In this document: in pieces, positions 17,154-47,622 of the stretch
Layout of the letters: the number at the start of each line of letters is the position of its first letter
Numbering within the stretch: the first letter of the stretch is position 1
Assembly: GCA_001661245.1 (NCBI GenBank)
Contig: KV454014.1
Location: 1,383,989-1,446,495, forward strand
From: Pachysolen tannophilus NRRL Y-2460
Lineage: Eukaryota
Reading direction: 5' to 3'
Length of the DNA: 62,507 nucleotides
Notes under the pieces: generated by a model
What the model saw: only the letters and a program-made list of their open reading frames with translations
Databases searched by the model: none
Told to the model about the DNA's origin: nothing
Position numbers and translations under genes: made by a program

Positions 17154-18814
17154 ATGAGTTGTTCTAATTCTTTGAATAAAGATAAAAACATTACAGCGGT
17201 TGAAATCACCGAAAATGTTGAAGATGACATTGATGAAATAATTTTGAAAACCAAAGATATTGCTGAGGAAGAAAAACAGGTGAGCGTATTTGAGGCTGTT
17301 AAGCGGTATCCAAAAGAGATTTTATGGTCTTGTATTTTCTCTTTAGGTGTAGTTATGGCTGGTTATGATGCTCAGATTATCTCATCATTTTATGCTTTAC
17401 CATCATTTCAAAAACATTATGGTATTCCTGATGGAGATGATTCTTATTATATTACTCTGGCTTGGCAAACTGCCTTAGGTATGGGTAGTCCAATTGGCCA
17501 AATCATTGGAACTTTATTTTGTGCATGGCCTTTAGAATGGTTTGGCCGTAAGAAAACTTATGCTCTGGTTAATGCTGGTTGTATTGCATTGGTCTTTATG
17601 CAATTTTTTGCTCCAAGTATACAAGTTTTATGTGCAGGTGAAATCTTAGCGGGCCTCTTATGGGGTTTTTGCGTATTAATTGGTCCAACTTTTGCCTCAG
17701 AGATTACACATACCTCTCTTAGAGGAATCTTGGAAGTAGTCAATAACTTAGCGTTCGTTATCGGACAATTTATTGCCAACGGTTTAGCAGCAGGTATGCA
17801 AAGTCGAACAGATTCTTATGCATACAAGATTCCATTTCTGATACAGTGGATTTGGCCTTCAATCATTTTATGTACTATTTATTTTGCACCTGAATCACCA
17901 TACTGGTTAGTTAGACAGAAAAAATTTGAAGAAGCGAAAGAATCGTTGCGTAAGATCTCTTCTAAAAATGAAAAAGAATCACAAATTGAAGACAGATTAA
18001 AATTAATCATAGAAACAGATCTGTTGGAGCAACAGATTGATCGCACCACATCACATAAAGATGTGTGGAAAGGTATTAATTTGAAAAGAACAGAAATTTG
18101 TTCAATGGTCTATTGTATTCAAATTTTTTCTGGTAATCCTCTTTGTGGTGGTTATAGTACTTATTTTTTTGAAACCCTGGGGTTGTCCTCTTCTAACTCA
18201 TTTAACTTGGCTCTTGGATCCACTGCTATTGGTTTTTTTTTACATGTTTATCATGTTTTATGTTATCATGGTGGGGTAGAAGAACAATATATAATTATGG
18301 TTTAGTTGCCTGCACAATCATTTTATTTGTTGTTGCTTTCTTGGACTGTTCTCCACTGTATGATACAAACAGTGGTATTCGTTGGGCCCAAGCTTCTTTG
18401 TTTCTTGTTTGGGCAGCTGTTTATCAAGGAACAATTGGCCCAATGACATTTGTTATTATTGGTGAAGTTCCTTCAACTAAATTAAGAGGTAAAACTATTG
18501 CAGTTGCAACCGCTTTACAATCTGTCTGTGCTTTAGTTTTCACTGTTATTATGCCCTACATTTTAGAACCAACAGAAGGAGATTTGAGAGGTAAATCTGG
18601 ATTTATATTTGGTGGACTCTCATTGTTATCTATAGTGTGGTGTTTTTACAGATTACCGGAAACTAAAGGAAGAACTTTTGATGAAATAGATGTCATGTTT
18701 CACAGGCAAGTTCCTCCTAGAAAATTCAAAAACTATGATTTATTGGGTGAAACTATTACTAATTTAGGAATTGAAGACAATGACCAGTATAGTACAAAAG
18801 TCACCGAAGCGTAA
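17154..18814 (+). pseudogene. Sugar porter (maltose/alpha-glucoside permease-like) split by a 1-nt frameshift in a T-run; pseudogene or assembly error
   Basis: ORFs 17154-18305 and 18260-18814 are consecutive parts of one paralog of 45946-47622. Adding one T to the T9 run at 18233-18241 gives GFFFTCLSCFMLSWWGRR, versus GFVFTCLSWFIMAYVGRR in the paralog. PESP and LPETKGRT motifs are present. Confidence 0.85.
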
Positions 18815-19730
18815 ACGAAGAAATACAAAGTTCCGTTATGGTGCAACAGTATACCTATTTAAATATTTATAATTATATATTTTAATTTATTAGAGTTGAC
18901 AAGAAGTCACATTGACACATCTCTTCGTAATGTAGGGCAACAAAAACTAATTTTTAAATAACAATTTCCTAAAAACCAAAGAAGAAAAAAAGCAAAATAC
19001 AAATCACCGTCTCCATCCAATGTCTGTTTCAAAATACCGATAAAGCATTTGTGATGTTTATCTCTTCCATTTCTTATCGTCGGTCTCTTGAAGTGCGGCT
19101 CAAAATTTTCATGCATAAAAGATTTTAGATAAATGTAACATTGCAATTTTTGTTTTCGGCATGGTTGGTTACAATCTCTTTCTCCAGTTACTTTTTTTCC
19201 ACGTTACATTGAATATATATCAAAATAAAGGATCTGAGAACCTTATAGGGAAACAATTGTAATCGGAACCACTTTGATTTTACAATGTAGCGTGTGATAA
19301 CTTGAGCTATCTGATTTACAGGTTGTTGAGATCTTACACTGGAGGAATGTAGAATAAATCAGGTTATATCTTCAAACTAATAGTTAAAACTACAACCTAA
19401 AGACATAACATTTCTTATCTTTTGATCACTTTGCCAAATTGCAAATAGCTAGGTACCTATCGCCAAAAAAAAAAATCTGTTCTCGGACTTTCTTTACATA
19501 TCAATGTGATATGTAAAAGAAGATAAGTTGAAAACTAAAAAGCAAAAAAGAACAAGAAAAAAAAAAACGCACACACCCAACACATACAACTAAACTATTA
19601 TCCATTAGGAACTAATACCTTATAATTTTCTTCTCTTTATCTTCTCTTTTTCTATACTTCAATTATCATTCATCATTGAAACTATTGAAAAATACAAAAC
19701 GTCGTGCACAAATATACTAATTGATATGTG

Positions 19731-19790
19731 ACGCGTAAAATTCTTTAAAAAAAAAAAATCAAAGAAAAAAAGGAAAAAAATCAAACCAGC
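19731..19790. promoter_or_regulatory. MCB element and Swi5/Ace2-type site upstream of the Sic1-like gene
   Basis: ACGCGT at 19731-19736 and ACCAGC at 19785-19790 in otherwise poly-A sequence. Confidence 0.45.
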
Positions 19791-20013
19791 CATTTATTTA
19801 ACCAAAAGGAATTAATTTAATAAAGTATCAGTAATTTTTTTTTCTTTTGATTCTAACGGTAATATTTTGATTTAGTTGTTGTGGTGCTAATCATTTTAGT
19901 TTTGTTATTGTCATTGCTCTTACTGCTACTTTTTTTGCTGTTTTAGATATTGCTATTTTTATTGTCAATTTGATTTTTTTTTTTTTTTTTTGCAAATTGA
20001 CCTAACCACAAAT

Positions 20014-20805
20014 ATGTCTTCGTCTTCATCATCATCATATATTCCACAAACTCCTCCTAGGTCACATAAAAAAACGAAAAGAGGCAATAACTCTCCATTC
20101 ACTCCAAATAGCCCAGTCACTAGAACATGTCATAACAATAAGGATAAGGTATCTTTGGATTTTAAAATATCTTCCAAGACTTCATTATTAAAGACACCTT
20201 CGTCAACTTCTCATCAACAAGGAAAACCTTTCACAATATATCAAACTCCGATTACTCCTCTATCGATTGCACATAAGAGAACTAGAAGTGATTTAATACC
20301 AACAACTCCAGTTTCTTTTACACAAACTTCTTCAAAAGAAGGTTTAACTACGCCTCAATTTTCAGGAAGATTATTATTTCCTGTTAACCCAGCAAGAATT
20401 GGAAGTGGGAGGTCACATCATAAACTGTCGTTAAAAACACCATCATTGACTTCTTTATTAAACAAGGCTGCTTTATCTGAGAGTGAAGGAGATATATCAG
20501 GAGAAGAAGATGAAGCAGAATTATTTGAACAACGTGGTCCTTCAACGCCTAAAAAACAGTTATTTTTTCAAACTCCAAGAACTCCTCCAAAATTGAAAAA
20601 AAGAAAAGATGAAGAAGATATTATAAATGATTTAGATAATAATTTAGGATCTAGAAAGAGAAAAAATGTTTTCATAAATGAAAAAGAAGAAGATAAGAGA
20701 GAAATTGTTTATGTTAATAGATATGGAGAAAAGAAAGTTCAAAAATTAAATGAAAAAGAAGTACAGGCTTTAAAACATACAAAGAGAAAATTAAGTTTCA
20801 CATAA
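20014..20805 (+). CDS. Disordered S/T-P-rich protein, probable Sic1/Sol1-type CDK inhibitor
   Basis: Many TP/SP CDK sites; the C-terminus EIVYVNRYGEKKVQKLNEKEVQALKHTKRKLSF resembles the Sic1/Sol1 inhibitory tail. ATG at 20014 (track start is TTG). Confidence 0.6.
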   Translation: MSSSSSSSYIPQTPPRSHKKTKRGNNSPFTPNSPVTRTCHNNKDKVSLDFKISSKTSLLKTPSSTSHQQGKPFTIYQTPITPLSIAHKRTRSDLIPTTPVSFTQTSSKEGLTTPQFSGRLLFPVNPARIGSGRSHHKLSLKTPSLTSLLNKAALSESEGDISGEEDEAELFEQRGPSTPKKQLFFQTPRTPPKLKKRKDEEDIINDLDNNLGSRKRKNVFINEKEEDKREIVYVNRYGEKKVQKLNEKEVQALKHTKRKLSFT

Positions 20806-21005
20806 TTTCTTTCTTTTTTTTTCTTTCTTGTTCTTCTTAAAAGATTCAATATAATATTTTTAGTTTTTTTTGTATTTGAAACAATTGGGCGGTTAATACA
20901 ATACAGAGAGTGAGAAATTAATGTGAATGGGTAATTTATTTATTTATTAATTAAACTGTAGCGAAAATGACTAGAAATGTAATTTATAGCAACTAAAATG
21001 ATAAC

Positions 21006-23582
21006 CTATTCAATAATAACAGGTTTACTCTCGCTGTGTTCATCTATGGGACTAGAAGTATCATGTAAATCTACGCCTTTATTACCAGTAGTAGTGACAT
21101 TACCATTTCCATTATTATGCGATCTGGCCTTAACCGGAGTTAGCAAAACACCGTCAATGGATACCTTCCTTTGATGCGGGGACGACATAGGATGAGTTGA
21201 GATAACATCATCATGGTTTGATTTCAAAGGTTTATACTTTAGGTTTGAATTATTCATTTTGGTTTCTTCAACTTCTTCTGGGTCATCCTCTTCTCTTGAA
21301 TCCGAATTTTCAGGTAATAATTCAGAGCTGCTAGTTCTTAATGTGGAAGTACTACTGCTACTTGATGCTCTTTTCTTAGCACTATCAACAGCATTTTGCA
21401 ATCTACTTTGAACAGTTGAATTTCTTGATAATCCGCTATAATTTTTCTTAGATAAAGGTAAACTTGAAATAGAAGTTGGTGAAGATTTCTGTAATGAATT
21501 TTTAACGTTACCTCTTTGACGAGACTGTTTTTTTAATTCATCAAATATTTGAACCTTATGCTCTAATAAATCTTTTACTAATTTTGATGTGAAAAGTCCT
21601 GCACTGCTGCTACTACTGTTATTAGTACTTGATCTCAATATTAATGTTGAAAATTCATTAGAGATATTGCTGACAAATTTATTAATCATCTCCTTCTGAT
21701 TATCTTCCTTACTATCTTGACCTACTGTACTAATCATTCTTGTAAAATGAGTTAAAATTGAATCCAAAGTAGCAATATTGCAAGTTGGTAAGTTGCTTAA
21801 AAAATTTATGAGACCAGTAATTCTTTTTTCAGTATTTGCCTCATCAGATCCAACAAATTGCAGATATAAAGATTTAATCAAATCAAAATATTCATTTGGT
21901 ATTAATGAGTCAGGTAATTCCAATAAATATAGTTTTAAAACTGATGCGATAATGGAGGGCGACCCGTATGTATTGTAAATTTCTTGCATTGTTTTAATTG
22001 AATATCTGGATTCATCATTATCTAACAATAAATTATTCAATTTATTTCTAAGATCATGAGTTAATTGTAGCTTCACTGGGATAATCCAACAATTTAACCT
22101 AACCTCATCATTTTCTAAAATAGGATAAATAGAATCCATATACATCAAGGTAGAACTAACAACAAGTGGGACCAATTTTTTATCAAACCTACACCTCAAG
22201 CTTAAATCTACACCAAACATTTGCTTTAAACTTGATTGATAGAAATTATCATACAAAGTGACTTTTGGTTGATAATAACCCGTTCTATAATTTTCCAATA
22301 GAAATAATAAATCTTTTATAGGTTGAATACTTTCTTCATAAATCATCAATTTGTCAATAATGGATTTCAAGGAAGTGATCTTGTTTGAAATTGATGCCAA
22401 GAAATCTAGTGTTACCTTTTTCAATGCTTTTAATCTATCTAATTCACATTTTTCCATAAATGAATAATGGTCAATCATCAATTGTTCCAATTTACAACGT
22501 AAATCATCTAATTTCAAAGCAGCATTTAAATATTCTTTATCTAAAGTTTTAACCTCCTGAATTAATCTTTTAAGACCTGGAATGTCGTTAATATCGACTT
22601 TTGTAGTGACATTACTCATTATATCATCAAAGTAGTTTGTTAACTGAGCAGTACCTTTAATATTATTAACAACTGATGAATCTTCCAATTCAATCCCTGC
22701 AAGTTCAAAACTATAAGGTTTCCATTGATAATACATTTGAGAACTATTAAGGAAATTTCTTTGTCCAACTGATCCAACAACTCTTAAAAATCCATTTTCT
22801 ATTAAACCTTGACCAATATTTTCCAAATTTTCTATTGAATTATTTGTTAAACCTAAATTATGTTGTAACCACATAACTATATTTGAACCAGTTGAACAAT
22901 TTTGATAAGTTCCCAAGATTGGTACTTTATATGAAGTTTTTGGAATTTCTTGTAACATTTTTTTCAAGATATCTTTTAAATTATTATAATCATATTCAAA
23001 ATCACCCAATTTAATATTTAAAGATTCATGTTCTCTTAATTTTTCTTCTTCCACAATTTTATCTTCTTGATCAATATAAGTATAAAAATCTTTTTCATTT
23101 GGAAATTGAGATTTTATATCTTCTAATAATCTACACCTATTAAAATATTTTTTTTGAATTTTTTCTAAAAATCCCTTATGCTTATTATAATTTTTTAAAT
23201 TAGTTTTTAAAGTCTTTTCACTATATTGTACTCTTTGTTTATGTTCCATTGACCATTTTGAAAAAGGATCTAAAACCATCAATTTTATATTTTGAGCAAC
23301 TTGAATATGATATTCACCTTCTCCACCCATCTCATTACATAAACCAAGAAAACATGATTTTAAAGACGCTCCATCATCTTTATTAAACCCTGATGGATTC
23401 GGCTGATGTTGTAATGGAATCTGACTTAATCCCTTACCATATTGTAATTCACATTCCATCCTCGTTGTAAATAATGAAACAAATTCATCATTCTCAACAC
23501 ATCCTTGATACAATTTACCAAATAAAATATCAATCCCAGAAAGATAATCATTAGTCCAAAAACTATCAGCAAATGATGGCAT
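21006..23582 (-). CDS. RGD2: F-BAR/DEP/RhoGAP protein Rgd2
   Basis: N-terminal SFADSFWTNDY..G...LF.KL (FCH domain), a DEP region, and the RhoGAP motif ASVLKLYLLELPDSLIP. Confidence 0.9.
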   Translation of the reverse strand: MPSFADSFWTNDYLSGIDILFGKLYQGCVENDEFVSLFTTRMECELQYGKGLSQIPLQHQPNPSGFNKDDGASLKSCFLGLCNEMGGEGEYHIQVAQNIKLMVLDPFSKWSMEHKQRVQYSEKTLKTNLKNYNKHKGFLEKIQKKYFNRCRLLEDIKSQFPNEKDFYTYIDQEDKIVEEEKLREHESLNIKLGDFEYDYNNLKDILKKMLQEIPKTSYKVPILGTYQNCSTGSNIVMWLQHNLGLTNNSIENLENIGQGLIENGFLRVVGSVGQRNFLNSSQMYYQWKPYSFELAGIELEDSSVVNNIKGTAQLTNYFDDIMSNVTTKVDINDIPGLKRLIQEVKTLDKEYLNAALKLDDLRCKLEQLMIDHYSFMEKCELDRLKALKKVTLDFLASISNKITSLKSIIDKLMIYEESIQPIKDLLFLLENYRTGYYQPKVTLYDNFYQSSLKQMFGVDLSLRCRFDKKLVPLVVSSTLMYMDSIYPILENDEVRLNCWIIPVKLQLTHDLRNKLNNLLLDNDESRYSIKTMQEIYNTYGSPSIIASVLKLYLLELPDSLIPNEYFDLIKSLYLQFVGSDEANTEKRITGLINFLSNLPTCNIATLDSILTHFTRMISTVGQDSKEDNQKEMINKFVSNISNEFSTLILRSSTNNSSSSSAGLFTSKLVKDLLEHKVQIFDELKKQSRQRGNVKNSLQKSSPTSISSLPLSKKNYSGLSRNSTVQSRLQNAVDSAKKRASSSSSTSTLRTSSSELLPENSDSREEDDPEEVEETKMNNSNLKYKPLKSNHDDVISTHPMSSPHQRKVSIDGVLLTPVKARSHNNGNGNVTTTGNKGVDLHDTSSPIDEHSESKPVIIE

Positions 23583-24386
23583 CGTTAATTCTAAATTTTT
23601 GTATGTATCTATCCCCGTTTTGCTTTTTCTTTATTTTTATGTTTATATTTATATTTTTTTAACTAACCGCGCTTAAACTTCAAAACTCCAATTTTTTCCT
23701 TTTCTTCAGAGAAACAAAAAGCCAATTTTTGCAAGTTAACAACTCAGCTATTAATACGAAAAGCAAAAAAGAAAAACAAAAGGAAAAGAAAAAAAAAAAT
23801 TAAAAACAAAAAAACGAAAAAAAAAAAAAAAAATTTAATTGATCCAAAGTCTTAGATATCAAAATTTAAAAGATAGTCCACCATTAATTAAATTAAATAT
23901 ATTATAATAATAATAATATTATTATTATTATATATCATATAACTTTTGTAACAGCGTTTAAAAAATCTAAATAAACCAGCAAAAAGTGATTAGTTAAGAA
24001 AAATAAAAAAAAAAGATTTATAAAATATTAGTTGATAACGCACGACCTTATGTATTGCTGCAACTATTATGCTGCAACTATATGCAGGATACATGTTTTA
24101 ACAGTAGTATTTAAATCAGAAAGATGTAACGAAGTTGAGTTTTGTTTGAAACAATTTTTTTTTTATTGGGGGAGAGAATAAGTTAAAAAGTCCAAAAAAT
24201 AACTAGAACTAGATATATAGTAAAACACAAATAGTCTCTTGAATAATACAAAAGGGAAAATAAAAATAAAAAAAAAAAAAGGGAAATCGGTAAAGGTCAA
24301 AAAAAAAAAGTAGAAAAAAAAAAGAGACACCCAAAAAGATAAGAGATAGAAAAAAAAAAAAATTAAGCAACAAAAAAAATCCGAGT

Positions 24387-26407
24387 TTATACAGTTAAAG
24401 ACATTAAAGAACCAACAAATGTTAAGATCAATCTTGATCTGACTTCGTTAATATCTTCAGGTACTAACCAAATCAAAGCACCTAATTTTCTTGCAATTGA
24501 GATGGCCAACCTTGCGTTTGCGTATTTTTCCTCATCAGTGTTACCAGGAGTGACCAAATCGTAATCGACATAGCCAGGTTTTATTCCGTGTAATAGGTCC
24601 AATAGCCATATACCGTTGGATAAGGAAGGATCACCAAAGGATCTGATTGTAGATTTCTTGCCACCTTTGGCAACTTGTTGAATACCCCATTGTAAAATAT
24701 CTGAATCTGTTAATTCTTTACCATTATGTGATAAAGATTTTAAAGTTAAAGTAATATTTCTTCTCATCAATTGCCAAACAAGTCCCAATGTTAAAATTTT
24801 GGAACCATCAACAATATCTGAACCTTCAATTCCTACTAATGAAAATCTATTAGCTTTACCAATTTCAACACAATAATTTGTATTTTCTAAAGCTTTAAAT
24901 CTTGATACTTCGGATCCATTTGAAGGCCTCTTATTAACATGTTTCCAATTAACAGAACCAGGCATAACTTTATCAAAGGCTTCCAGTAAAATTGTACCAT
25001 CTTTAAGATCTTCAAAAAGTGAAACAACAGGTGTGCTTACATCTAATGAATTTAACCACAATGTAAATACACGAGCTTCTCTTTCACCAGTAGCATCAAA
25101 TGCTTCTATTTCTGTTTTCTCCGATTCTTCAATTGGTTCTAATCCAGGATAAGTATTAAATAAATGAGCAACAAAGGCCAAATTTAATTTTGGATCACCA
25201 TTTACTAAAGCAGTTGGTGTTAAATATTTTCTACATTCAATCTTATCAGCATTTTCCAAAATTTGTTCAGCTCTTGTTAATAAATCTTTTGTTTGTAATG
25301 GATCTCTTGAACAATATTCAGGTTTTAATTGATTCAACAAAATTGTATAATTTTCACCATCTGAAACATCTTTAGAAAAATTACTAATTCTTCTGTTCCA
25401 ATTGGCTAATTTCAAATGATAGTTAAACCATCTAATTAAAATTTGTTCAGGTGGTAATCTCAAAAATTGTTCCAAAGTTTCATCTTCTTCCAATAAACGA
25501 TATAATTCTGGGTGTAATTTAATATCAATTTTACTTAATAAACCTCTTCTAATGATTTGCCAAATCAAACCCAATATAAGATGTTCCTTACCTTCAATTA
25601 TATCTTCAGCGTGAACGTTGACAACAATACAACCAATGGCTTTAGCAGAGTTAATAACAATATTTGCATTTTCAGTCATTGTAAAATTATTCAATTTCTT
25701 ACCCTTCTTAGGGAAATTTAAAACTCTAGTATCAATGGTATCGGGGGCTGAATCGTTGATCAATTTTGCCAATACAAGACCATCAGTACATTCATCAAAC
25801 ATTTGGAAATTATCAAGCGGAAATGGTAATCTATCACCTATATCTGGATCACCTGCTAAAGCAGTATTAATGTGTCTGGTGAATTCAACTCTTGCATCAT
25901 CATTAATTGTATGAGTAGTATCCGAGGTTCTACCACTAAGAATAGTTTTCGCATTAACTCCGGTGCCTTTGTGCTGGAAAGTATGAGGAGCATGTTCAGG
26001 TTCCACCTTCAATTCCCTCAACTTTGCAACTAGCTCAACAAAATCATCTAATTCAACATGTCCTGAAGCATCGAGGTCGACTTGTTTCAAAGTATTTCTT
26101 ACTTCATCATACGTTCCTTTACCAGACCCAGAAACATTTTCAATGACCACTTGTTTATCGGCCCAACCCTTATCATCCGCGTCAATGTGTCTAAATTCAT
26201 CAATGGCAGAGTAAAGGTCTTCTTGAGTCAATACAGGAAATTTTTTCTATAAAATTCTTCCATTAGTAACTGTTATCTTCAACAAATTCACAACTAGAAA
26301 AAAAAATAAAGCAAATTATTAAAAAACATATAAAATTCAATTTTGTTTTCGAAGAATTACAAAAAAAAAAAAAAAAAACAACATACCTGTAATTTAACAA
26401 TATTCAT
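24387..26407 (-). CDS. SAC6: Fimbrin; two exons, 26407-26387 and 26246-24387
   Basis: Spliced N-terminus MNIVKLQ|KKFPVLTQEDL; EF-hand region plus four CH domains (HLILGLIWQIIRRGLL, GEREARVFTLWLNSL, AISIARKLGALIWLVPEDI). Confidence 0.97.
26247..26386 (-). other. Spliceosomal intron of SAC6 (140 nt)
   Basis: GTATGT donor after codon 7, TACTAAT branch near 26263-26269, TAG acceptor; same position as the S. cerevisiae SAC6 intron. Confidence 0.92.
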
Positions 26408-26614
26408 AGCTAATTTGTCTTATCTCTACTATAAAATTGGCTATTTGATTATTATCTTATATAAAGGAATATTATTTTTAATTGTTAAATGAATATGGTT
26501 TCAATTGTATGACAAAAATAGAGAGGTACAGCCAATAAATGATGATGCCAGCCATCTCTTTTCCGAACAGGTAGTGTTCGTTCAGTCACAAATTCCAAAT
26601 TCGGGAATATTTTT

Positions 26615-26668
26615 ACACCACCCACACCACCCACACCATCTACACCGTACACACCATCTACACCACAA
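26615..26668 (+). repeat. Interstitial telomere-like array of six degenerate 9-mers
   Basis: ACACCACCC, ACACCACCC, ACACCATCT, ACACCGTAC, ACACCATCT, ACACCACAA; the telomeric C-strand unit is ACACCACTC. Confidence 0.8.
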
Positions 26669-26790
26669 ATACAAATTTTAATATATATAATTTTAACACA
26701 TATATAAATACCAGCTACATGCATGTATAAAAAACATATACCGTAGAATAAAAAAATCTGTAACAACAAGACTATGAACTATCACTTATG

Positions 26791-29466: not shown

Positions 29467-29936
29467 TTTTTCTTTACTTAATCCTTTTGTCGGACTCTTT
29501 TCAATACATAGACAAATAGATAAAATAAATAAAAGTCAAATAAATATGATTTTCAAAACAATATTGTTTAATCAACTTCAGGTCCTTCAGTCCTTCTTTA
29601 AGAAATCATTGAATAAAATAAACATGAAAAAAAAACAAAGTAAAAAAAAAAAGAAAAAAAAAAGAAATAATTCTTCAAAGAAAGCAGACGAACAAAAATA
29701 TTAGCAGATACTCCAGTCAAACATCACTCTGGAAATCTATATGGTAAGCTGAATCTGATTTTTTTTTTATAAAGGCATCACTAAAATGAACAACCGTTTT
29801 GAAAAAAAATTTAGTAACCCTGGTGGTTGTGCGGTTAACATCGAAGCACGTCATATTTTGCAAAGAAATATATTTGATATTCATCGCACTACTATATTTC
29901 ATTATGGGTGTAGGTTAAGAAAAGTACCAAACCAAT

Positions 29937-34975: not shown

Positions 34976-35395
34976 CGAAAATTCAAATCAATCAGAAAAA
35001 CAACAATATCTGATAAGATATAATTATTGACTTAATTACTCAAAACCATTGATTGGCTTTAAATTTCTTCAAGTAGAAAATAACAAAAAAAAAAAGACGT
35101 GCTTCAACAAATCACTTTTAAGTTCTTTAATTTATCTCTATTACCGAATTGATTTATATATTATAAATTTTTGAACCCTACTATCTATTGCCCTGAACTT
35201 TTATAAAAGATTAGCCTTTTAAATTTAACTTATAAAGGCTAAGGAAAGAAAAAAAAAAGAAAATGCTATATAAAGAAAAAGTCTTAGAGAGAGAAAAGAA
35301 GAATAAGAAAGAAAGAAAAGAAAGAAAAAAAGAAAAAAAGGCCACTAGAGTGAGTGCCTTTTTCTCTGACTAAGAAAAAAAACAAAAAAAAGAAG

Positions 35396-37406: not shown

Positions 37407-38471
37407 ATGTCATCTTTGGAATCGCCATCGTCTTCTATTTTGAATAGGGCTTGGAATTTGTGTTCTAACTCGTTGAACGAGTTGCCGATTACTAAATTAC
37501 TTGAATTGATTGATAATTTAGAATTAATATCTCATGTTAATATTTTAGATAAAGATAGTAGAGAAATAGCTTCTAAATTTATTGAAAATCATAAAGATGA
37601 AGATTTGGTTATAACTTTGAATGATTTTAGACCATTTTTCGATAAATTGTTTGGGTTTACGCTATCGGAAAAAATTAATAAGAATAGAAATATTTCTCCA
37701 TTTCAACAAAGAAAACAACATTTTAATTCTTCTCCATCATTATTTAATTCAACAGCGCCTCCTAAATTAAATTTTAATACTGATCCAACAACAAATTTTG
37801 TGAATCTGGAATTGATGAAATTGAAAAGAGCTAATGGTCAAAGTGAAGATGAGATTAAATTTAGAGATGATGTTATAAAAGATTTAAATGAAAAAAATGA
37901 AATGTTATCAAATAATTATAAAAATTTTAAAACAAATAATATAAAATTACAAAATAAATTAAGAGATAATGAAGAATATTTGAAAAAATTTGAAGATGAA
38001 TATAGTACAAATGAGAGATTTAATAAATATAAAAAAAATTTTTTAGAACCAATTGATGGTAATAAGATAAAGAATAATGATGATTTGCAATTAAATCAAA
38101 GAGATCAATTAATAATTCAATTAAATGATGAAATAAGAATTCAAAATCAATTAGTAAAATCTTTAATTAAACAAAATACAGAATTACAATCACAAAAAAA
38201 AAATTTTAGTCATAAAGAAACTTTTACAACTTCTTTTGCAAATAATGATAATAATAACAATAATATTAATAATGGTAATTTGAAAAAATTAAATTTTTTG
38301 AAAAAATCATCCTCTGTTATTATATTAAACATAAGATGGATTATATTATTTACATTTTGCATATTATTAATTTTAAGTGCTTTGGAATTTTTAACTGAAT
38401 ATTTTGGCGATAATTTAGAAGATAAGATAGATTTTTTCACAGATTCAATTAGTCAATTCCAAAATTCTTGA
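37407..38471 (+). CDS. Coiled-coil protein with a C-terminal TM helix; Mps2/Csm4-like nuclear-envelope or SPB protein
   Basis: N-terminal ILNRAW...KLLELIDNLE resembles the Mps2 N-terminus; central coiled coil; single TM (WIILFTFCILLILSAL); ACGCG core at 37284-37288 upstream. Confidence 0.55.
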   Translation: MSSLESPSSSILNRAWNLCSNSLNELPITKLLELIDNLELISHVNILDKDSREIASKFIENHKDEDLVITLNDFRPFFDKLFGFTLSEKINKNRNISPFQQRKQHFNSSPSLFNSTAPPKLNFNTDPTTNFVNLELMKLKRANGQSEDEIKFRDDVIKDLNEKNEMLSNNYKNFKTNNIKLQNKLRDNEEYLKKFEDEYSTNERFNKYKKNFLEPIDGNKIKNNDDLQLNQRDQLIIQLNDEIRIQNQLVKSLIKQNTELQSQKKNFSHKETFTTSFANNDNNNNNINNGNLKKLNFLKKSSSVIILNIRWIILFTFCILLILSALEFLTEYFGDNLEDKIDFFTDSISQFQNS

Positions 38472-38588
38472 AATTTAGGCACTTTCTTTTTTTTTTTCTT
38501 TTACATTCATTCAATATTAGCTAATAATTAATAATTTTTGAAATCATTGCATATTAATTATTATTATATCTTTTAATTTTTTTATTTA

Positions 38589-39608
38589 TTATTTTTCCCT
38601 CAGTTTTGAAAAATCATCAGCTACTTTAATGGCATCCAATACAATATCCCAAAATACTTTCATGTTCATGTCATCACCAACTAAGACACCATCATTAGCT
38701 TTTTCTAGCAATAGAACTCTTCCATTATCAACTGTTCCAGCATAACCATGAATGACATCTATTTTATATCTTTTATATTTAAAATCTAATAAATTGCAAT
38801 TTTTATTTTGTAAGTCATAAAACGACAAGAGACAAACAACGGCTAAAGGATCATGAACTGGTGGACCTTTCAAAAACCCCTTATTAAATTTGTAGGCATC
38901 CGCAAATGCAGTAATAATTTCATAAAATAACCTCCTCAATTTTGTAACATTTGGTTCATTCAAAATCAGTTTTTGTATATTATCATAAGCAATTGCCTTG
39001 TGAGTTAAATCCGATGGAATTAAAATGGTCTTTGATGATAAGATAGGATCTGTTAGTACTGTATGTGCAGCATGAGGATCGCACGTAATATTAAATTCCC
39101 CAATTTTCCAAGTTCTTTCGGAGACTGCACCTCCCATTATTGATAAATATTTGATCTTACTTTTGACTTGAGGATACTTAGTTATCAATTTTGCTATATT
39201 AGTTAAAGGTCCAACAGCAACCAACGAGATTTCATTCGGGTAATTATTTATTGCAGATACAACAGTTTTTAACATCTCTTCACTTTTACCTTTAATACCA
39301 ATTTCTGTTTTCGGTAAATAGTTAGATCCACCAAGTCCTAACTCGCCATGTATATGAGGAGCATGCCGTGGATCAAGAACCAATGGACTATCAAAACCTT
39401 GATAAACTGGAACATCTGTCCTATTCAATGCTGTCATCAATGACAATGCATTATTAGTAGTATTTGTTAATGAGGAATTGCCATGAACAGTGGAAATTCC
39501 CAAGAGTTTAAACTCATCATGGAATGCAGCAACTAATATTGCAACTGCGTCATCGTTCCCCGGATCACAATCTAACCATAACGGTACTTTAATGCTTTTT
39601 TCTGCCAT
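38589..39608 (-). CDS. URH1: Uridine/ribosylpyrimidine nucleosidase (IU-nucleoside hydrolase family)
   Basis: WLDCDPGNDDA aspartate motif, STVHGN, GPLTNIA, EFNI..DP.AA and GPPVHDPLA. Confidence 0.9.
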   Translation of the reverse strand: MAEKSIKVPLWLDCDPGNDDAVAILVAAFHDEFKLLGISTVHGNSSLTNTTNNALSLMTALNRTDVPVYQGFDSPLVLDPRHAPHIHGELGLGGSNYLPKTEIGIKGKSEEMLKTVVSAINNYPNEISLVAVGPLTNIAKLITKYPQVKSKIKYLSIMGGAVSERTWKIGEFNITCDPHAAHTVLTDPILSSKTILIPSDLTHKAIAYDNIQKLILNEPNVTKLRRLFYEIITAFADAYKFNKGFLKGPPVHDPLAVVCLLSFYDLQNKNCNLLDFKYKRYKIDVIHGYAGTVDNGRVLLLEKANDGVLVGDDMNMKVFWDIVLDAIKVADDFSKLREK

Positions 39609-39969
39609 TATCCATCACCAATTAACAAGTTGAAAAAATTCAAATCTCAATACCATTATTTTCAATTTATTATCTAAGGTTTCGGCAAATTTCTTAAGCC
39701 GCATATAAGAAAAGACTATTACTACTTACTACTTTCAGAATAAATTAAAAAAATTGTATATAATTAAATAATTAGTATTAAATATTAAAATAATAAGATT
39801 CGTTAAAGATCATAAAATAAAAAAAAAAAAAAAATAATTAGTTTTGCAAGTTCATAAAAATGGCAACGTAGAATAACATATAATAATGATTAAAAATTAA
39901 AAAAAAAAATAATAAATATTAATTGGGGAAATCGAATATTTTTTTTCTTTGGAGATTCAAATCAACCTT

Positions 39970-40848
39970 TCAAACTCTTGCATTCCAAAACTTTTTACCT
40001 TTTGGTTTAACTGCAAAAGGACTGTAAGTGGTTGGAACAACAATGAAAGAGTTTGATTTAGAACTCAAACCAACAAAGGCTACGTAGAAACAACAAACAG
40101 CTGAGATAAATGCAAATACAGCTGAAGCCTTTTGACAACCAAGACTACCTCCGAATGTAGCAATAGTCAATAATAAGAAAAACAACCAAACACAAAAAGT
40201 CAAAGCGAATATTGGTAATGTAGATTTAAATGTAACAATCCAAGTATATAAAGCGAAAATTGTCCAGGCAGATAAGTAAAAACCAAGAGCACTGTCAAGT
40301 TCTGTAGTACTATCGTAAGCGCTTACAACGTCAAAACCAGCGCATAAAGTAGCACCATAAGAACCAAAGAATCCGGCATAACATAATAAAATTGTTGCTG
40401 CATAAGTGTTTTCTAATACGATACACCAAATACCTGTAATAATTTGAATTAAACATGATAAAAATAAAAATGGACCAATAACAATAGCATCGTTGGTAAC
40501 ATGTCTAGTTCTGAATAACAACAATGATAATGTAAACAAGGAAATACCAAGTGAACTAATACCTGCTGGAACTGGATTAGCAAACTTTCTTGATGGTTTT
40601 TCATTATAGCCAGTATTCAAATTACCAGTGAAAGGATACATGTAATTTCTTTCATCTACTGGTTCTTCATAAGTAACATAACCTGCGAAGTTGTTAACAT
40701 TAAATCTGCCATATGGAGTTGGGTTATAGTAAGGATTGTCGTTGACGGCAGCACCATCGTTAAAGTTCGATGGTTGTTCTTCATTGGAAACAACCTTAGG
40801 CTCATCTTGAGAAGCAGCTGCAGTTTGGAGATCGTCGTGTTCAGACAT
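39970..40848 (-). CDS. GPR1/FUN34/YaaH (Ato/Ady2) acetate-transporter family protein
   Basis: RKFANPVPAG signature followed by six hydrophobic helices. Confidence 0.88.
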   Translation of the reverse strand: MSEHDDLQTAAASQDEPKVVSNEEQPSNFNDGAAVNDNPYYNPTPYGRFNVNNFAGYVTYEEPVDERNYMYPFTGNLNTGYNEKPSRKFANPVPAGISSLGISLFTLSLLLFRTRHVTNDAIVIGPFLFLSCLIQIITGIWCIVLENTYAATILLCYAGFFGSYGATLCAGFDVVSAYDSTTELDSALGFYLSAWTIFALYTWIVTFKSTLPIFALTFCVWLFFLLLTIATFGGSLGCQKASAVFAFISAVCCFYVAFVGLSSKSNSFIVVPTTYSPFAVKPKGKKFWNARV

Positions 40849-41682
40849 GTCGTTTTTTAATTTTTTTTCAAGTAAATATTAGTTTTGATTAATGATATTT
40901 TCTTGTGTAATAAGAAGTCCAGAATCAATGATAAAATAATAATAAAAATAATGAAAACTACAGAAAAACAGCTACTTAAATATCATTTTCAATTCTTTCT
41001 CCTTGTTTAAAGATTTTCAGTTTGAACCTAAGAGTGAACCCTTAAGTTACCGTTCCTAAAATAAAAATGAATAAAATGAAAATTTTTTAAAAAAATATTT
41101 AACTATATTTTGATAAATGGTAACACTAAAACTCAATTCCAAAGTCAATTTCCATCATCTCGAACCTCCGCTTCATCCCGTTATATTACTTTACAGTACT
41201 GTTAAGACATTCTTTACTCATAAAAGTTAACAACATTCATGTCTGAAGACTTTGTTTCTGATCATTCGATTAACTGAATTACACGAAATGAAGTGATTTT
41301 TCAATAGTTCACCAAAAAAAATTTTTAAAAAAATGCAAGTTCATGCATATTTCTGCAGATGAGAATAAACATACCATTAAAGATTACATTAGGATATAAT
41401 ATCATCTACTCTGGGTTAAACAGTAATTGAGTTAGCCAATTAGTTTTCACCTAAGAGTCATAACAACTCCGTATTGGTATAATATTTCAAAAAAGAGATT
41501 CAGGGGGATATAACTATAGTTAAATTATTCTAGTTTACTTTACAGTCTTCAATATATAATTACGTAACATATAACAAGTATTGAAAACCCACCCAAAATA
41601 GAAATAAAAAAAGAGAAAAAGAAAAAAAAACAAGAAAAAAAATTACATCGAACCATAATTCCCAAAGGAGGTAATGACTTAA

Positions 41683-42573
41683 TTAACCTTCGAGAGCATA
41701 ACCGAGTTGAACATTTTCAAATTTTTTTGTTAATGCAATTAATTTCTCTTTTAAAAGATTCAAATTTTCATTATCACTTTTCAAATCCGGTAACCAGTCA
41801 GCAATACCATGTTGTAAGATACCTTTTGCTCTTGAATCGCCATGATTAACACGACCATAGCTACCGTGTAAGGTTATTCTTAAATTTTTTGAAGAATACA
41901 GAGCTCTGTGAAGAATATTATTATTATAGAACACAAGATCACCGGGAGCTAATTCAACTGTTATTTGACCTTGAATGAATTCTTTTCGATTGTCATTAGT
42001 AGTCTTCTTTCTCTCTTCAGGTGTTCTGATACGATTATGAGATTTTGGTACCACAATTAAACAATTATCCTCTAGTAAGGCCAAATTAAACTGAGCACCA
42101 TCATATTGGTCCTTTAATAATAGTTCCAGTTCTTCTTCTTCGGAAACTTCTGGTTTAATTGTATCTCTATGCCAGTCTAATTCAAAATCAGTCAACGGGT
42201 TTATAAGCATATTTAACAACTCCATTGATAAACCATACTTGTCTGTTTTCAATATATCTCCAGCAACGGCTAAGATTTTGTCACTCGCATAAAAATCATG
42301 GAACGGCTTAGATAATTCACCCAACTCCGGATGTAATAAACCTGTAATACCCCAAATATCTGGAGTAAAGTCCTTTGGCCATGGTGGGAACTGTTTCCCT
42401 CTAGTTCTGGCATGTGGCCATTTTCCCTCTCTAGTGTATTTAATTAAATCTTCTGAAGCTTTCCTATATTGTGCAATTTCTTCTGCTGTTAGAAATTGAC
42501 GAATAATAGTGAACCCATTCTCCGCTATTTCTTCATGATACTTGTGCAATGTTGTAGATGGCATTTTACTCAT
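41683..42573 (-). CDS. Phytanoyl-CoA dioxygenase (PhyH)-family Fe(II)/2-oxoglutarate dioxygenase
   Basis: ENGF.II..FL start, WHRD (HxD), VVPKSH, and L.PGD.VF....LHR (distal His). Confidence 0.85.
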   Translation of the reverse strand: MSKMPSTTLHKYHEEIAENGFTIIRQFLTAEEIAQYRKASEDLIKYTREGKWPHARTRGKQFPPWPKDFTPDIWGITGLLHPELGELSKPFHDFYASDKILAVAGDILKTDKYGLSMELLNMLINPLTDFELDWHRDTIKPEVSEEEELELLLKDQYDGAQFNLALLEDNCLIVVPKSHNRIRTPEERKKTTNDNRKEFIQGQITVELAPGDLVFYNNNILHRALYSSKNLRITLHGSYGRVNHGDSRAKGILQHGIADWLPDLKSDNENLNLLKEKLIALTKKFENVQLGYALEG

Positions 42574-43071
42574 ATAAAATATAATTTTTATTTAGCTTTA
42601 ATTAAATTAATAAATTGTAAAATTATTAACTCAACCGAGAGAAGTTAACCCATTTATTTGATTCTGATTGAACCGAAATTAAAACAATTAAATATCTAGT
42701 TATTTGATTTGTAAATTAAAATAACTGAATACTTATCTCTCATTTAACTTGTTGTCTTTTAACCGTCTTGAGATAAATTTGGTTCGAGGTGACATTTTCT
42801 GAACCTTGGTGCACTTGATGCACTGATTAGCCAGAATGTAACCGTACAAAAAACATAATGCAACATTAAGACAGCCGCAGACATAATCTCATATTGTTCT
42901 TTCTTTTTTTTCAGATTGATTGGTATTAAACATTTAGATGATAAGACGAAAAGATTATTTGAAAGATCAATAACCACTTGCCGAAGCAAAATTTTATTAT
43001 TGAAATTGCTTGAAAAGTTATTAATTTCTTCTTATCAAGTTTTTTCTTCAAGAGGCCAGAAAAAAAAAATA

Positions 43072-44145
43072 ATGATTTATTCATTGAATTGGGGTATTAT
43101 AGGTGCTGGTAACATTTCCGGTCAATTCGTACATGACTTATGTATGAATAACGCTAATTCTACTGATTTCAAACATATTATTAGATCAATTGGTTCATCT
43201 TCAAAGGACAAAGGTGAAAAATTTATTGCTGAGCATTCAATTTTTGATAAAAACAATTTCCATATTAGGCCAGTTGCTGAAACATATGAAGAAGTTTTCA
43301 ATAACGAACAAGTTAATATTGTATACTTGGGAACTCCGCATCCGTTTCACAAACAACAAGCAATTCAAGCCTTCAATTGTGGAAAACATGTTTTATGCGA
43401 AAAACCGGCTACCATTAATGCTAATGATTTAACTGAATTGATTCAATTAGCGAAATCTAAAAATCTTTTTTTTATGGAGGCCGTTTGGACAAGGTTTTTC
43501 CCTTCAATTGATTTGATTAAAAACTATATTTTTTGTGAACAAATATTGGGTGAAACTCGGCGATTATTTGTTGACTTCAGTTACGATGAAGAAATAGAAA
43601 AATTACCTCCAACTTCAAGAGTTCGTGATATCAACTTGGGCGGTGGTGCATTGTTAGATATTGGTATTTATACCATTACTTACGCACGTATTTTGTTAGA
43701 CGATAAATTAGCACCTTTTAATACAGATTTCCAAATTAAGGCGGCACTAATGATTGATAAAGTTGATAAAGTTGATTATTTATGTTCTATCTTACTAAAC
43801 TACGAAACTGGCAAACATGCAGTTTTGACTGCTTCAAATATTTTGAAAGGTAAAGAACCTTTCCTTAGATTAGAAGGTACTAAGGGACAATTAGAAATAT
43901 TCAGTTCTAATCCACTGGCGCCAAAAAAGTTTAAGATTATTTTTAATGATGGTTCAAAACCTATTGAATATGAAGATGAAAGTAGTTATCTTGGTTTTAT
44001 ATACGAGGCAAATGCAATCGCGAAGGATATAGCAGAGTCAAATATAGAAAACTCACTTATGCCTACACAGGAGTCACTTTTAGTTATGAAGATTATGGAT
44101 GAAGTAAGAAAACAAAACGGGTTGGTTTATCCTCAAGAAAAATAA
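43072..44145 (+). CDS. Gfo/Idh/MocA oxidoreductase (dihydrodiol / D-xylose 1-dehydrogenase NADP+-like)
   Basis: WGIIGAGNIS, VYLGTPHPFH, KHVLCEKP, FFMEAVWTRFFP and GGGALLDIGIY. ATG at 43072 (track start is TTG). Confidence 0.92.
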   Translation: MIYSLNWGIIGAGNISGQFVHDLCMNNANSTDFKHIIRSIGSSSKDKGEKFIAEHSIFDKNNFHIRPVAETYEEVFNNEQVNIVYLGTPHPFHKQQAIQAFNCGKHVLCEKPATINANDLTELIQLAKSKNLFFMEAVWTRFFPSIDLIKNYIFCEQILGETRRLFVDFSYDEEIEKLPPTSRVRDINLGGGALLDIGIYTITYARILLDDKLAPFNTDFQIKAALMIDKVDKVDYLCSILLNYETGKHAVLTASNILKGKEPFLRLEGTKGQLEIFSSNPLAPKKFKIIFNDGSKPIEYEDESSYLGFIYEANAIAKDIAESNIENSLMPTQESLLVMKIMDEVRKQNGLVYPQEK

Positions 44146-44283
44146 TATAATTTTTTTTTATTTTATTAGATCTATTTGAAGTTATAGTTATAAATTATCC
44201 TCAACCATCAGTGGTGGGCTCTTTTTTTTTTTTTACAAAAAGAATAAATAAATTTCAAAAAATATAGTTTCACAGATTTATAT

Positions 44284-45516
44284 TCAACCAAAACACCAAA
44301 ATCCGTTGTTTATCCATTTAATATCTTCATTAGTTCCTTTTTTGCCAAAATCTTTCAACATTGGCAAAAAGTTTTTGTTAGAAGTATCTAATTTCCAGCC
44401 ACTACTGATAAGTTGATTCATGATAAATTCTGTAGTTTTTGCATCTTTTGTACAAATGTCAGCAGTGGTAATGGAAAGCTTAATTGAATTTACATGGGAA
44501 AATTTCAAAAATGAATAGTTTTGGAAACTGTCTTTCAAGAAATTTAGCAAATAATTTATATCTTTCAGTAATATTTCTCTTTCAGTTTCAATTTCTGAAT
44601 TCAAATTGGTGAAAAGCTTAGGTAATAATAATCCAGAATAATCCAAAGCACCACAAAAAATAACAAAAGTTTCCTTGCCAATAGTACTATCTTTTATTCT
44701 CAAGCCAATATATTTGTAAGATCTATCGTAGTAAGAACTTACAGTTTTATCTCTTACATAAAAATTGTGAATTGTAGGAGAAGATAAATTAGTAGATCTT
44801 GTAAAGATACCATTGTCGTTTTCATTAATGTATGAAACGTAATCTTGACCAGAGAAAAAGTCAGTAATATTTGAAATATCACCATGTTTCAATGGAATCA
44901 AGTCAACACCAGGATATTCTTGTAGCTCTTGATTTTCTAAAGAGTTGAATTCATGTTGTTTCTCGGCTGGTACAGGTTCTTCGTAAATTAACCAATTCAT
45001 CTCAGGATAGCTTTTAAAACCAAACCTAGCATAATATTCGGAAACTCCAGAATATAAGCTCCAAAAATAATTATATTTGCCTTTAAGTAAATATTCATTA
45101 AGATACTTGTCAGTTTCATCATTATCAGAAAGAGGACATTCAAATTCATATCCTTCAATTTCATATTTTTTGATACATTCACTAATCATATAGCCAGCAA
45201 ACCCTTTTTTTCTATATTTTGGATTTGTATGAACGTTACCAATTAACAAATTGCAGTTTTTCACGTTTCCCGGTTTATACATTATTCTGAAGGAGCAGAT
45301 TATCTCGTCATTATTGGAACTGTCAATCATATAAAATTGATGCCATGGCTCTTGAGAGATATCAGCAACTTCACATTCTGTAATTACAAATACTTCTGAC
45401 GGTAAATTACCTTTAAAATCAATAGAAGTTGAAGTGATTACATCACGTAGCAACAATTTCTTCTCTGGATAATCAGAAGAGTTGATCTGTTTGATTGGGT
45501 ACTTTGAGTAGTCCAT
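44284..45516 (-). CDS. GNAT-family N-acetyltransferase (Lyc1-like)
   Basis: Acetyl-CoA motif A (IGNVHTNPKYRKKGFAG) and motif B (SLYSGVSEYYARFGF). ATG at 45516. Confidence 0.75.
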   Translation of the reverse strand: MDYSKYPIKQINSSDYPEKKLLLRDVITSTSIDFKGNLPSEVFVITECEVADISQEPWHQFYMIDSSNNDEIICSFRIMYKPGNVKNCNLLIGNVHTNPKYRKKGFAGYMISECIKKYEIEGYEFECPLSDNDETDKYLNEYLLKGKYNYFWSLYSGVSEYYARFGFKSYPEMNWLIYEEPVPAEKQHEFNSLENQELQEYPGVDLIPLKHGDISNITDFFSGQDYVSYINENDNGIFTRSTNLSSPTIHNFYVRDKTVSSYYDRSYKYIGLRIKDSTIGKETFVIFCGALDYSGLLLPKLFTNLNSEIETEREILLKDINYLLNFLKDSFQNYSFLKFSHVNSIKLSITTADICTKDAKTTEFIMNQLISSGWKLDTSNKNFLPMLKDFGKKGTNEDIKWINNGFWCFG

Positions 45517-45803
45517 ATTACTAGCCAAGATTGTTACTACTTCTAAAATTTTAAAATTCAATTTGTAGTTATTCAACTTGAAAACAATAGCAAAAATAGA
45601 CCAAGATTGATAAAAATAAATCGAGATATAATAATAATAATAATAATAATAATACTTGTACTTCGTTTTTTCACCACCATGTTCTTCCTACGATCGGGGT
45701 ATAAAACATTGAAACTTAGTGTGAGCCGCTTCGGAGTTTTCTTATTAACGAAATCGCAAATAATACAACGTTACATGCTTGAAAAACTATTTTTTTACAT
45801 GCC

Positions 45804-45830
45804 GATAACAAGATAAGCGATAAAGATAAG
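45804..45830 (+). promoter_or_regulatory. Four tandem GATAA sites in the GNAT / sugar-porter divergent promoter
   Basis: GATAA at 45804, 45812, 45819 and 45825 within 27 bp. Confidence 0.65.
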
Positions 45831-45945
45831 ACTTGCATTTACCAGTAATAGTATATATGTACGGACCTATTCGAAGAAATCTGCAAAAGATGAATTTTTT
45901 TTCCATTAAAATAGAGAGCTAAGAAATTTAGTAATACTACAGAAG

Positions 45946-47622
45946 ATGAGTATTGAATCAGAGACCGATGAAAAATCTCGTACAGTTATTACAACTGTTA
46001 CAACATCGAATAATATTAATCATAACATCCAAGAAATCTTGTTGAGTACAAAGGATGTTTCTGAACAAGAAAAACAAGTTGGGATCTTAGAATCCATAAG
46101 GGAATATCCAAAAGAAATTTTTTGGTCCTGTATTTTTTCTTTGGGATTAGTTATGGCTGGTTATGATGCTCAAATTATTTCATCATTCTACGCTTTGTCT
46201 TCATTTAATAAGCATTACGGTACCCCAGATTCAAGTGGTGAATATGCAATTTCTGCTGCTTGGCAAACAGCATTGAGTATGGGTACCCCTATTGGTCAAA
46301 TTATTGGAACTTTGGGGTGTGCTTGGCCCATGGAATGGTATGGTCGTAAGAAGACTTATGCTGCTACTGTTATGGGGTGTTTATGTTTAATATTTATGCA
46401 GTTTTTTGCACCAAACTTAAAAGTATTATGTCTGGGTGAAATATTAGCTGGAATATTATGGGGGGCCTGTGTCTTAATTGCTCCAACATATTCTTCTGAA
46501 ATAAGTCATACCTCCATTAGGGCTGTTCTAGAGGCAACAAATAATTTGGCTTTTGTAATTGGACAATTCATTGCCAATGGTGTTAGTGATGCCATGGCTA
46601 ATAGAACAGATGAATACGCGTACAAGATCCCATTTGCTGTTCAATGGATCTGGCCATTCATTATTTTGATTTGTATTGGTTTTGCTCCCGAATCACCTTA
46701 TTGGTTAGTTCGTCATGGTAAAATGGATGAAGCTAAGAAATCATTGAGAAAAGTCAGTAGAAAAAGTGAAGACGATGAGTCAATCGAGAAAAGATTATTT
46801 TTAATCAAAGAAATTGATGCATTGGAACAGGAATTAAAACAAACTACATCATACCGTGATATATTTATTGGAACAAATCTGAAAAGAACAGAAATTTGTT
46901 GTATGGTCTATTGTATTCAAATTTTTTCTGGTATTCCATTGTGTATGAACTATTCAACTTTTTTCTTTGAACAGGCTGGCTTGTCTGATGATGATTCTTT
47001 CTCATTATCTCTTGGATCAACAGCTATTGGATTTGTCTTTACCTGTCTGTCATGGTTTATTATGGCTTACGTTGGAAGAAGAACACTTTATAATTGGGGA
47101 CTCGTGCTGACAACTGTAATCTTGTTCATTATTTCCTTCTTGGATATTTCACCTGTTTATAGCACAAATGATGGTGTTCGTTGGGCTCAAGCCTCTTTAA
47201 TTCTTGTTTGGTCTCTGATTTGGCAAGCATCAATTGGTCCAGTATTGTATGTTCTTCTTGGTGAAATACCATCAACAAAATTACGTGGAAAAACAATTGC
47301 TTTTGCAACAGCTATGCAATCAGTTACAGCTCTTGTTTTCACTATTATTATGCCTTACATGCTAGATACAGATGAAGGAAACTTAAGAGGTAAAGCAGGA
47401 TTCATCTTTGCTGGTATTTCATTGGTTTGTATTCTGTGGTGTTTCATTAGATTACCCGAGACAAAAGATAGGACTTTCGACGAAATTGATATCATGTTCC
47501 ATAGGGGAGTACATTCCAGAGATTTCTCAAAATACGTTATTTTAGATGAAGCAGAAGATGTGTTGAGTACCAAGGACAGCAAACACATCATCGGTACTGA
47601 AATCATGAAAACAGAAGCTTAA
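45946..47622 (+). CDS. Sugar porter, maltose/alpha-glucoside permease-like
   Basis: MAGYD, WQTAL, GRKK, YKIPFAVQWIWP, APESPYWLVR, LRGKT, LPETKDRTF; 12-TM layout. Confidence 0.93.
   Translation: MSIESETDEKSRTVITTVTTSNNINHNIQEILLSTKDVSEQEKQVGILESIREYPKEIFWSCIFSLGLVMAGYDAQIISSFYALSSFNKHYGTPDSSGEYAISAAWQTALSMGTPIGQIIGTLGCAWPMEWYGRKKTYAATVMGCLCLIFMQFFAPNLKVLCLGEILAGILWGACVLIAPTYSSEISHTSIRAVLEATNNLAFVIGQFIANGVSDAMANRTDEYAYKIPFAVQWIWPFIILICIGFAPESPYWLVRHGKMDEAKKSLRKVSRKSEDDESIEKRLFLIKEIDALEQELKQTTSYRDIFIGTNLKRTEICCMVYCIQIFSGIPLCMNYSTFFFEQAGLSDDDSFSLSLGSTAIGFVFTCLSWFIMAYVGRRTLYNWGLVLTTVILFIISFLDISPVYSTNDGVRWAQASLILVWSLIWQASIGPVLYVLLGEIPSTKLRGKTIAFATAMQSVTALVFTIIMPYMLDTDEGNLRGKAGFIFAGISLVCILWCFIRLPETKDRTFDEIDIMFHRGVHSRDFSKYVILDEAEDVLSTKDSKHIIGTEIMKTEA

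Follow-up and report, generated by a model that had tools for sequence, protein, structure and literature searches.

The stretch of DNA analysed here, called the window below, is 62,507 nucleotides long (contig KV454014.1, filed under Pachysolen tannophilus NRRL Y-2460). It carries two paralogous sugar-porter genes, and this report concerns the meaning of the codon CTG in these two genes and in their neighbors. Taken in 5-kb steps, the window has a GC content of 25-35%. It holds 28 open reading frames (ORFs) of at least 150 codons, in which CTG is a rare codon, accounting for 65 of 14,222 ORF codons. The product of sugar porter copy 2 matches the Pfam family PF00083 (Sugar_tr), which belongs to the major facilitator superfamily (MFS), over the full length of the profile (E = 1.1e-92, positions 3-452 of 452). 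The Pfam scan was made with copy 2, and copy 1 is placed in the family by its 65% identity to copy 2, with 347 of the 530 aligned codon pairs being identical.

As it stands in the window, copy 1 consists of two overlapping ORFs (17154-18305 and 18260-18814), and its frame breaks at a run of T (Table 1). Switching to the second frame at this run gives a protein that can be aligned to copy 2 free of gaps. The stretch is covered by five public runs, which come from two studies, and the contigs of four of them (X1, X2, X3 and X5, one contig each) were compared to the window; X1 may be the source sample. The contigs of all four runs have an extra T behind position 18232, supported at full depth, and copy 1 is thereby brought back into frame; no base substitutions were reported in them over positions 17100-25900. 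This makes copy 1 an intact gene, with a break that is due to faulty assembly. The possibility that copy 1 is a pseudogene is ruled out by the same frame-restoring T.

Table 1. Features of the window, with positions counted from its first letter.
Feature	Position	Strand	Remarks
Not1/CDC39 gene	5736..12386	-	2216-codon ORF; 10 CTG; Pfam Not1 domains
Sugar porter copy 1	17154..18814	+	6 CTG: 17457, 17565, 17838, 18021, 18177, 18356
Run of 9 T, frame break of copy 1	18233..18241	+	10 T in the public contigs
CTG of fimbrin (Sac6-like)	24984..24986	-	in ORF 24387-25802; conserved Leu of a CH domain
Sugar porter copy 2	45946..47622	+	single ORF, 558 aa; 6 CTG: 46432, 46879, 47047, 47107, 47215, 47434
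Vba2-like MFS transporter	47962..49683	+	5 CTG; equals PACTADRAFT_85762, Ala at 5/5 CTG
Arn1-like siderophore transporter	55374..57239	-	3 CTG; own public protein (P0391) has Ala at 3/3 CTG

Each of the two sugar-porter genes contains six CTG codons. A preliminary description of this DNA, made by eye from the sequence, had listed twelve in-frame CTG codons in the pair; all of them are indeed in frame, they comprise every CTG of both genes, and the same list is recovered when the paralogs are aligned codon by codon and again when CTG is masked as X. Opposite the CTG codons of copy 1, copy 2 has the alanine (Ala) codon GCT in four cases (17457, 17565, 17838 and 18177), GCA in one (18021) and the valine (Val) codon GTT in one (18356). 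Opposite those of copy 2, copy 1 has GCA (46432), GCC (47107) and GCT (47215), the leucine (Leu) codons TTG (46879) and TTA (47047), and GTG for Val (47434). The earlier tally of the twelve partners, 8 Ala, 2 Leu, 2 Val and no serine (Ser), is thus reproduced exactly, and the Ala partners (5 GCT, 2 GCA, 1 GCC) are spread over both genes, with five of six in copy 1 and three of six in copy 2.

All eight pairs of CTG with an Ala codon (GCN) differ at all three codon positions. When both sides of the same alignment are counted, none of the 92 ordinary Leu codons lies opposite Ala, as compared to 8 of the 12 CTG codons (Fisher p = 1.9e-9), and this contrast argues against the standard code, which the preliminary description had also found to explain the pattern poorly. 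GCN codons that do not face CTG have Ala opposite in 42 of 65 cases, and CTG cannot be told from them in this respect (p = 1.0). Between the two sugar-porter paralogs, CTG behaves as an Ala codon, far beyond what chance would give.

The meaning of CTG was also assessed against distant homologs, using a column test in which five genes (the two sugar porters, Not1, the Vba2-like and the Arn1-like gene) were aligned, with CTG masked, to 455 homologs. These were all 150 family representatives for the sugar porters, 69 of the 120 listed homologs for Not1 (P0002-P0070; own record left out), 119 of 120 for Vba2 (own record left out) and 117 of 120 for Arn1 (own record and two Pachysolen paralogs left out). 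For each codon and residue, the score is the sum over columns of the log of the residue's column frequency divided by its background. The five genes hold 30 CTG codons, one of which was dropped because its column was occupied to less than half, such that 29 columns were scored; 28 of the 65 CTG codons of the window lay outside all comparisons with homologs, those with solved structures included.

In this test, the standard residue comes out with a clearly positive score for 59 of the 61 sense codons. The exceptions are CTG, the only one of the two that is well sampled, and CGG, which is represented by a single column; with CTG set aside, 59 of 60 keep their standard meaning. While the Leu scores of CTT, CTC and CTA are +34, +13 and +32, that of CTG is -23.4, and Ala is the best of the 20 residues for CTG at -16.9 (glycine -22.6, Ser -32.3). 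Since the other three CTN codons score positive for Leu and CTG does not, the comparison with distant homologs clearly sets CTG apart from the ordinary Leu codons. The same is apparent in single columns, where Ala reaches at least 50% in 3 of the 29 CTG columns as compared to none of the 516 columns of ordinary Leu codons (p = 1.4e-4), and Leu reaches at least 50% in 3 of 29 as compared to 247 of 516 (p = 6e-5). The log ratio of Ala versus Leu, summed over the 29 CTG columns, is -4.5, whereas sets of 29 resampled Leu columns lie between -114 and -58. Ser makes up at least 30% of the column in none of the 29 CTG columns, as compared to 135 of the 352 columns of Ser codons.

Three of the genes can be tied to their own public records. 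The Not1 protein is 99% identical to PACTADRAFT_58766 of P. tannophilus NRRL Y-2460, while the next-best matches have only 43% identity. Over 2195 residues, the sole mismatches to this record are the nine aligned CTG codons, all of which are Ala in the record. The record lacks 21 in-frame residues of Not1, and the tenth CTG is among these; likewise, PACTADRAFT_85762 lacks 14 in-frame residues of the Vba2-like gene. Taken together, the Not1, Vba2-like and Arn1-like genes have Ala in the public records at 17 of 17 aligned CTG codons, and the three records lie on one contig of 1,446,495 bases. The CTG sites and the skipped stretches are the only differences between these genes and the records of P. 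tannophilus NRRL Y-2460, which places the window within the clade for which the code has been described. P. tannophilus is assigned to the order Alaninales in the taxonomy, and the definition of NCBI table 26 reads "Pachysolen tannophilus nuclei: CTG=A".

The stretches that the public gene models skip lie at 8049-8111 on the minus strand in Not1 (63 bases, with one CTG inside) and at 48031-48072 on the plus strand in the Vba2-like gene (42 bases), and neither contains a stop codon. They may be true short introns or artefacts of gene modelling.

A number of observations speak against a simple reading of CTG as Ala. In the column test, no residue scores positive for CTG, and the Ala sum is itself negative. 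The Ala-versus-Leu sum of -4.5 is outside the range of 29 resampled GCN columns (+43 to +98) and resembles that of a random codon, the range for all codons pooled being -40 to +23. Ala and Leu have nearly the same mean frequency in the CTG columns (0.147 and 0.152), and each of them is the top residue in six columns. Columns with at least 50% Leu are more frequent for CTG (3 of 29, two of them with at least 90% Leu) than for GCN (1 of 262; p = 0.003). The Vba2-like and Arn1-like genes together have eight CTG codons, all of them outside Ala-enriched columns, and for these two genes alone Leu outscores Ala. Hence, CTG is unlike an ordinary Ala codon too, and Ala is not positively established from the 29 columns alone. 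The Ala residues in the public records reflect the annotators' choice of table 26 and are not an independent measurement, such that an argument built on them is circular; the records therefore identify the organism, but do not prove the code.

Single sites add to the case against Ala. In the Vba2-like gene, the CTG at 49021-49023 has Leu in 109 of 119 homologs and the one at 49360-49362 in 117 of 119, and the surrounding alignment is unambiguous at both. The CTG of the fimbrin gene (24984-24986) faces Leu in all three of the solved fimbrin/plastin chains shown, and the contigs of the four runs do not differ from the window at this codon.

To these can be added the CTG at 46879-46881 of sugar porter copy 2, where 85 of 149 homologs have Leu. 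If read as Ala, the CTG codons at 49021, 49360, 24984 and 46879 are Leu-to-Ala replacements at conserved sites. Elsewhere in the window, solved structures place other residues opposite CTG. These are methionine (Met) once and arginine (Arg) four times for the nucleoside hydrolase CTG at 38967 (a second CTG of this gene is beyond the alignments), phenylalanine in three entries of one enzyme for the ACC deaminase, tryptophan in the one solved chain that reaches the CTG of the GFO-type oxidoreductase, and proline (Pro) in two variants of one protein for the arylsulfotransferase CTG at 51283, the second CTG of which is unaligned. For the PhyH-like protein, no solved relative was found at E <= 1e-5.

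With respect to the structure of the fimbrin gene, the start of the ORF at 24387-25802 on the minus strand corresponds to residue 45 in the solved chain of Schizosaccharomyces pombe fimbrin. The gene's N-terminal part must therefore be located upstream of this ORF, probably beyond an intron.

The evidence from the tRNA and from peptides, by which the code was established in 2016, comes from published work. Mühlhausen et al. 2016 (PMC4937558) described an alanine-type tRNA(CAG) in P. tannophilus that has the identity elements G3:U70 and A73 and no Ser variable arm. They counted 16,824 CUG positions in 5288 predicted proteins and, by liquid chromatography with tandem mass spectrometry (LC-MS/MS), found Ala at 97.2% of the 907 CUG positions that had full support, with the ambiguity of CUG being no greater than that of AUG. 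Supplementary Data 3 of Krassowski et al. 2018 (PMC5951914) gives Ala for 158 of 160 de novo CUG matches, with no Leu and no Ser, though the spectra do not exclude the low-level incorporation of other residues. The preliminary description had proposed that CUG is read as Ala according to table 26, and this is supported both by the contrast between the paralogs and by the published tRNA(CAG) and LC-MS/MS data (PMC4937558); its assignment of the Ala code to the clade of Pachysolen, Nakazawaea and Peterozyma agrees with PMC5951914.

The mixed appearance of the CTG columns, too, has a published counterpart. Krassowski et al. provide a matrix of codon by residue for P. tannophilus, restricted to sites with more than 80% agreement among aligned yeast proteins (PMC5951914). 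In this matrix, only 554 of 20,511 CTG codons (2.7%) are at conserved sites, as compared to about 22% for GCT, TTG and TTA (14,854 of 66,067 for GCT). The conserved residue at these CTG sites is Ala in 30.2%, Leu in 15.8%, Pro in 9.6% and glutamine (Gln) in 7.2%; for GCT, the corresponding values are 83%, 0.7%, 1.3% and 0.35%. The window mirrors this genome-wide pattern, in that few CTG codons occupy conserved sites, and among the residues found there Ala forms the largest class, clearly followed by Leu in second place. An earlier survey, which covered 26 proteins of the cytoskeletal and motor type, saw no CUG of Pachysolen at Leu or Ser positions of high conservation (Mühlhausen and Kollmar 2014, PMC4986446). 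Outside this sample of 26 proteins, CTG at highly conserved Leu sites does exist, as seen both in the published matrix and in the window.

Taken together, we consider it almost certain that the window belongs to the nuclear genome of P. tannophilus (strain NRRL Y-2460 or one nearly identical to it), in which CUG means Ala, as in NCBI table 26. Under the standard code, in contrast, CTG would be Leu, and the pairs of CTG with Ala between the paralogs would be real Leu/Ala replacements or chance. This would accommodate the two Leu codons among the twelve partners, the three Leu-dominated columns, two of which are near-invariant, the Leu opposite the fimbrin CTG in all three chains, and the lead of Leu over Ala in the Vba2-like and Arn1-like genes when these are taken alone. 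But it would leave Ala opposite eight of the twelve CTG codons when no ordinary Leu codon faces it, far too few Leu-dominated columns and a strongly negative Leu score where the sister codons score positive. Moreover, the source is P. tannophilus, for which the published spectra (no Leu among 160 matches in PMC5951914, 97.2% Ala in PMC4937558) refute Leu as the meaning of CUG, and we regard the standard code as extremely improbable here. A reading of CTG as Ser, according to NCBI table 12 as in the Candida clade, has even less to recommend it, and its probability is close to nil. It draws on the fact that the organism is a budding yeast and that Ser usage had once been assigned to Pachysolen from conservation data (PMC4986446), but the same authors revised this assignment to Ala in 2016 (PMC4937558). 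In the window, Ser is opposite none of the twelve CTG codons, dominates no CTG column in the way it does those of Ser codons, and scores far below Ala. The absence of Ser from the 160 de novo matches (PMC5951914), together with the lack of a Ser variable arm in the tRNA(CAG) (PMC4937558), refutes this reading for the species.

More subtle is the idea that CUG has a dual meaning, being read as Ala in the main and to a minor or context-dependent extent as Leu, for instance through wobble reading by tRNA-Leu(UAG). A Leu reading would make CTG at invariant Leu sites less harmful, and it would be in line with the excess of Leu-dominated columns for CTG over GCN in the window as well as with the corresponding excess of Leu at conserved sites genome-wide (PMC5951914). 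The spectra of PMC5951914 leave room for other residues at a low level, and a stochastic reading of CUG as Ser or Leu is known from Ascoidea asiatica (PMC6041473). On the other hand, Leu is absent from the 160 de novo matches (PMC5951914), and CUG was found to be as unambiguous as AUG (PMC4937558). The excess of Leu also has a simpler cause, since a single base change leads to CTG from the Leu codons TTG, CTT, CTC and CTA but from none of the Ala codons, and Pro and Gln, whose codons CCG and CAG are equally close, are enriched too. We therefore judge dual decoding of CUG to be very unlikely, and there is only a slim chance that a low or context-dependent Leu reading, as opposed to plain replacement, is what makes CTG tolerable at the near-invariant Leu sites 49021, 49360, 24984 and 46879. 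Leu is absent from the published spectra, and sites of Pro and Gln show an excess in parallel, which makes an ordinary one-step replacement of Leu by Ala much the likeliest account.

According to the literature, the reassignment of CUG to Ala may have proceeded by loss of the ancestral tRNA-Leu(CAG), after which CUG codons would have become rare and would have been captured by an Ala tRNA whose anticodon had mutated to CAG. The captor tRNA would have kept G3:U70 and A73, the identity elements for alanyl-tRNA synthetase. This enzyme reportedly does not read the anticodon, and a tRNA with the anticodon CAG would therefore still be charged with Ala. New CTG codons could then arise in one step from TTG or CTH (Leu), GTG (Val), CCG (Pro), CAG (Gln), ATG (Met) and CGG (Arg). 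Since CTG cannot be reached from any Ala codon by a single base change, the CTG codons of this genome would be young and would often mark recent replacements by Ala. Such a one-step origin would explain why CTG sites appear young and mixed, that is, rare at conserved positions and enriched in Ala, with a visible minority of Leu sites. The one-base neighbors of CTG also fit the published matrix, in which CTG is in excess where Leu, Pro or Gln is conserved.

For the annotation of the window, this means that the 65 CTG codons in its 28 long ORFs must be read as Ala. Since CUG affects 80% of the genes of the species (PMC4937558), translation with the standard code gives a wrong residue in most of its proteins. 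The code is recognisable from one pair of paralogs in raw sequence.

Some further features of the window deserve mention. An H/ACA snoRNA, snR3, is located at 2610-2817 on the plus strand, between a zinc-finger ORF and the ORF at 3505-5349 (Rfam RF01251; 49.5 bits as compared to a gathering score of 40, E = 1.5e-5). It was the only hit of the Rfam scan of the window, and ARAGORN found no tRNA gene in it. Three homopolymers between genes, at 19464, 19746 and 19834, lack one base in the window as compared to the contigs of the four runs. All four runs show a summed contig depth at 19746-20039 that is five- to eightfold the depth of the flanks, and the contigs have A-rich loose ends around this stretch as well as joints that jump to 23151 or 23998. 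This suggests a short low-complexity repeat with many copies in the genome.

The interpretation of CUG as Ala is correct and, as the preliminary description had itself remarked, the code is not new. The code, the tRNA, the proteomic proof and the clade were all published between 2016 and 2018, and the window adds no new biology to them. A second discovery paper is said to be that of Riley et al., in PNAS in 2016.

The closest known system is the nuclear code of P. tannophilus itself (table 26, Alaninales), the type organism of this code. Both the organism and the reassignment are the same, the mixed CTG columns match the genome-wide matrix, and nothing differs; the gene for the tRNA-Ala(CAG) lies outside the window. 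The CUG-Ser codes of the Candida/Debaryomyces group (table 12) and of Ascoidea and Saccharomycopsis also take CUG away from Leu in budding yeasts, and there, too, the tRNA with the CAG anticodon is derived from the tRNA of another amino acid (PMC5951914). They differ from the present case in the residue, which here is Ala; Ser is found opposite none of the window's CTG codons in the paralogs, nor is any CTG column rich in it. In Ascoidea asiatica, CUG is kept off conserved positions (PMC6041473), and the same holds for P. tannophilus with its 2.7% of CTG codons at conserved sites. Yet A. asiatica has two competing tRNAs, and both Ser and Leu are found in its spectra, whereas those of P. tannophilus contain almost only Ala.

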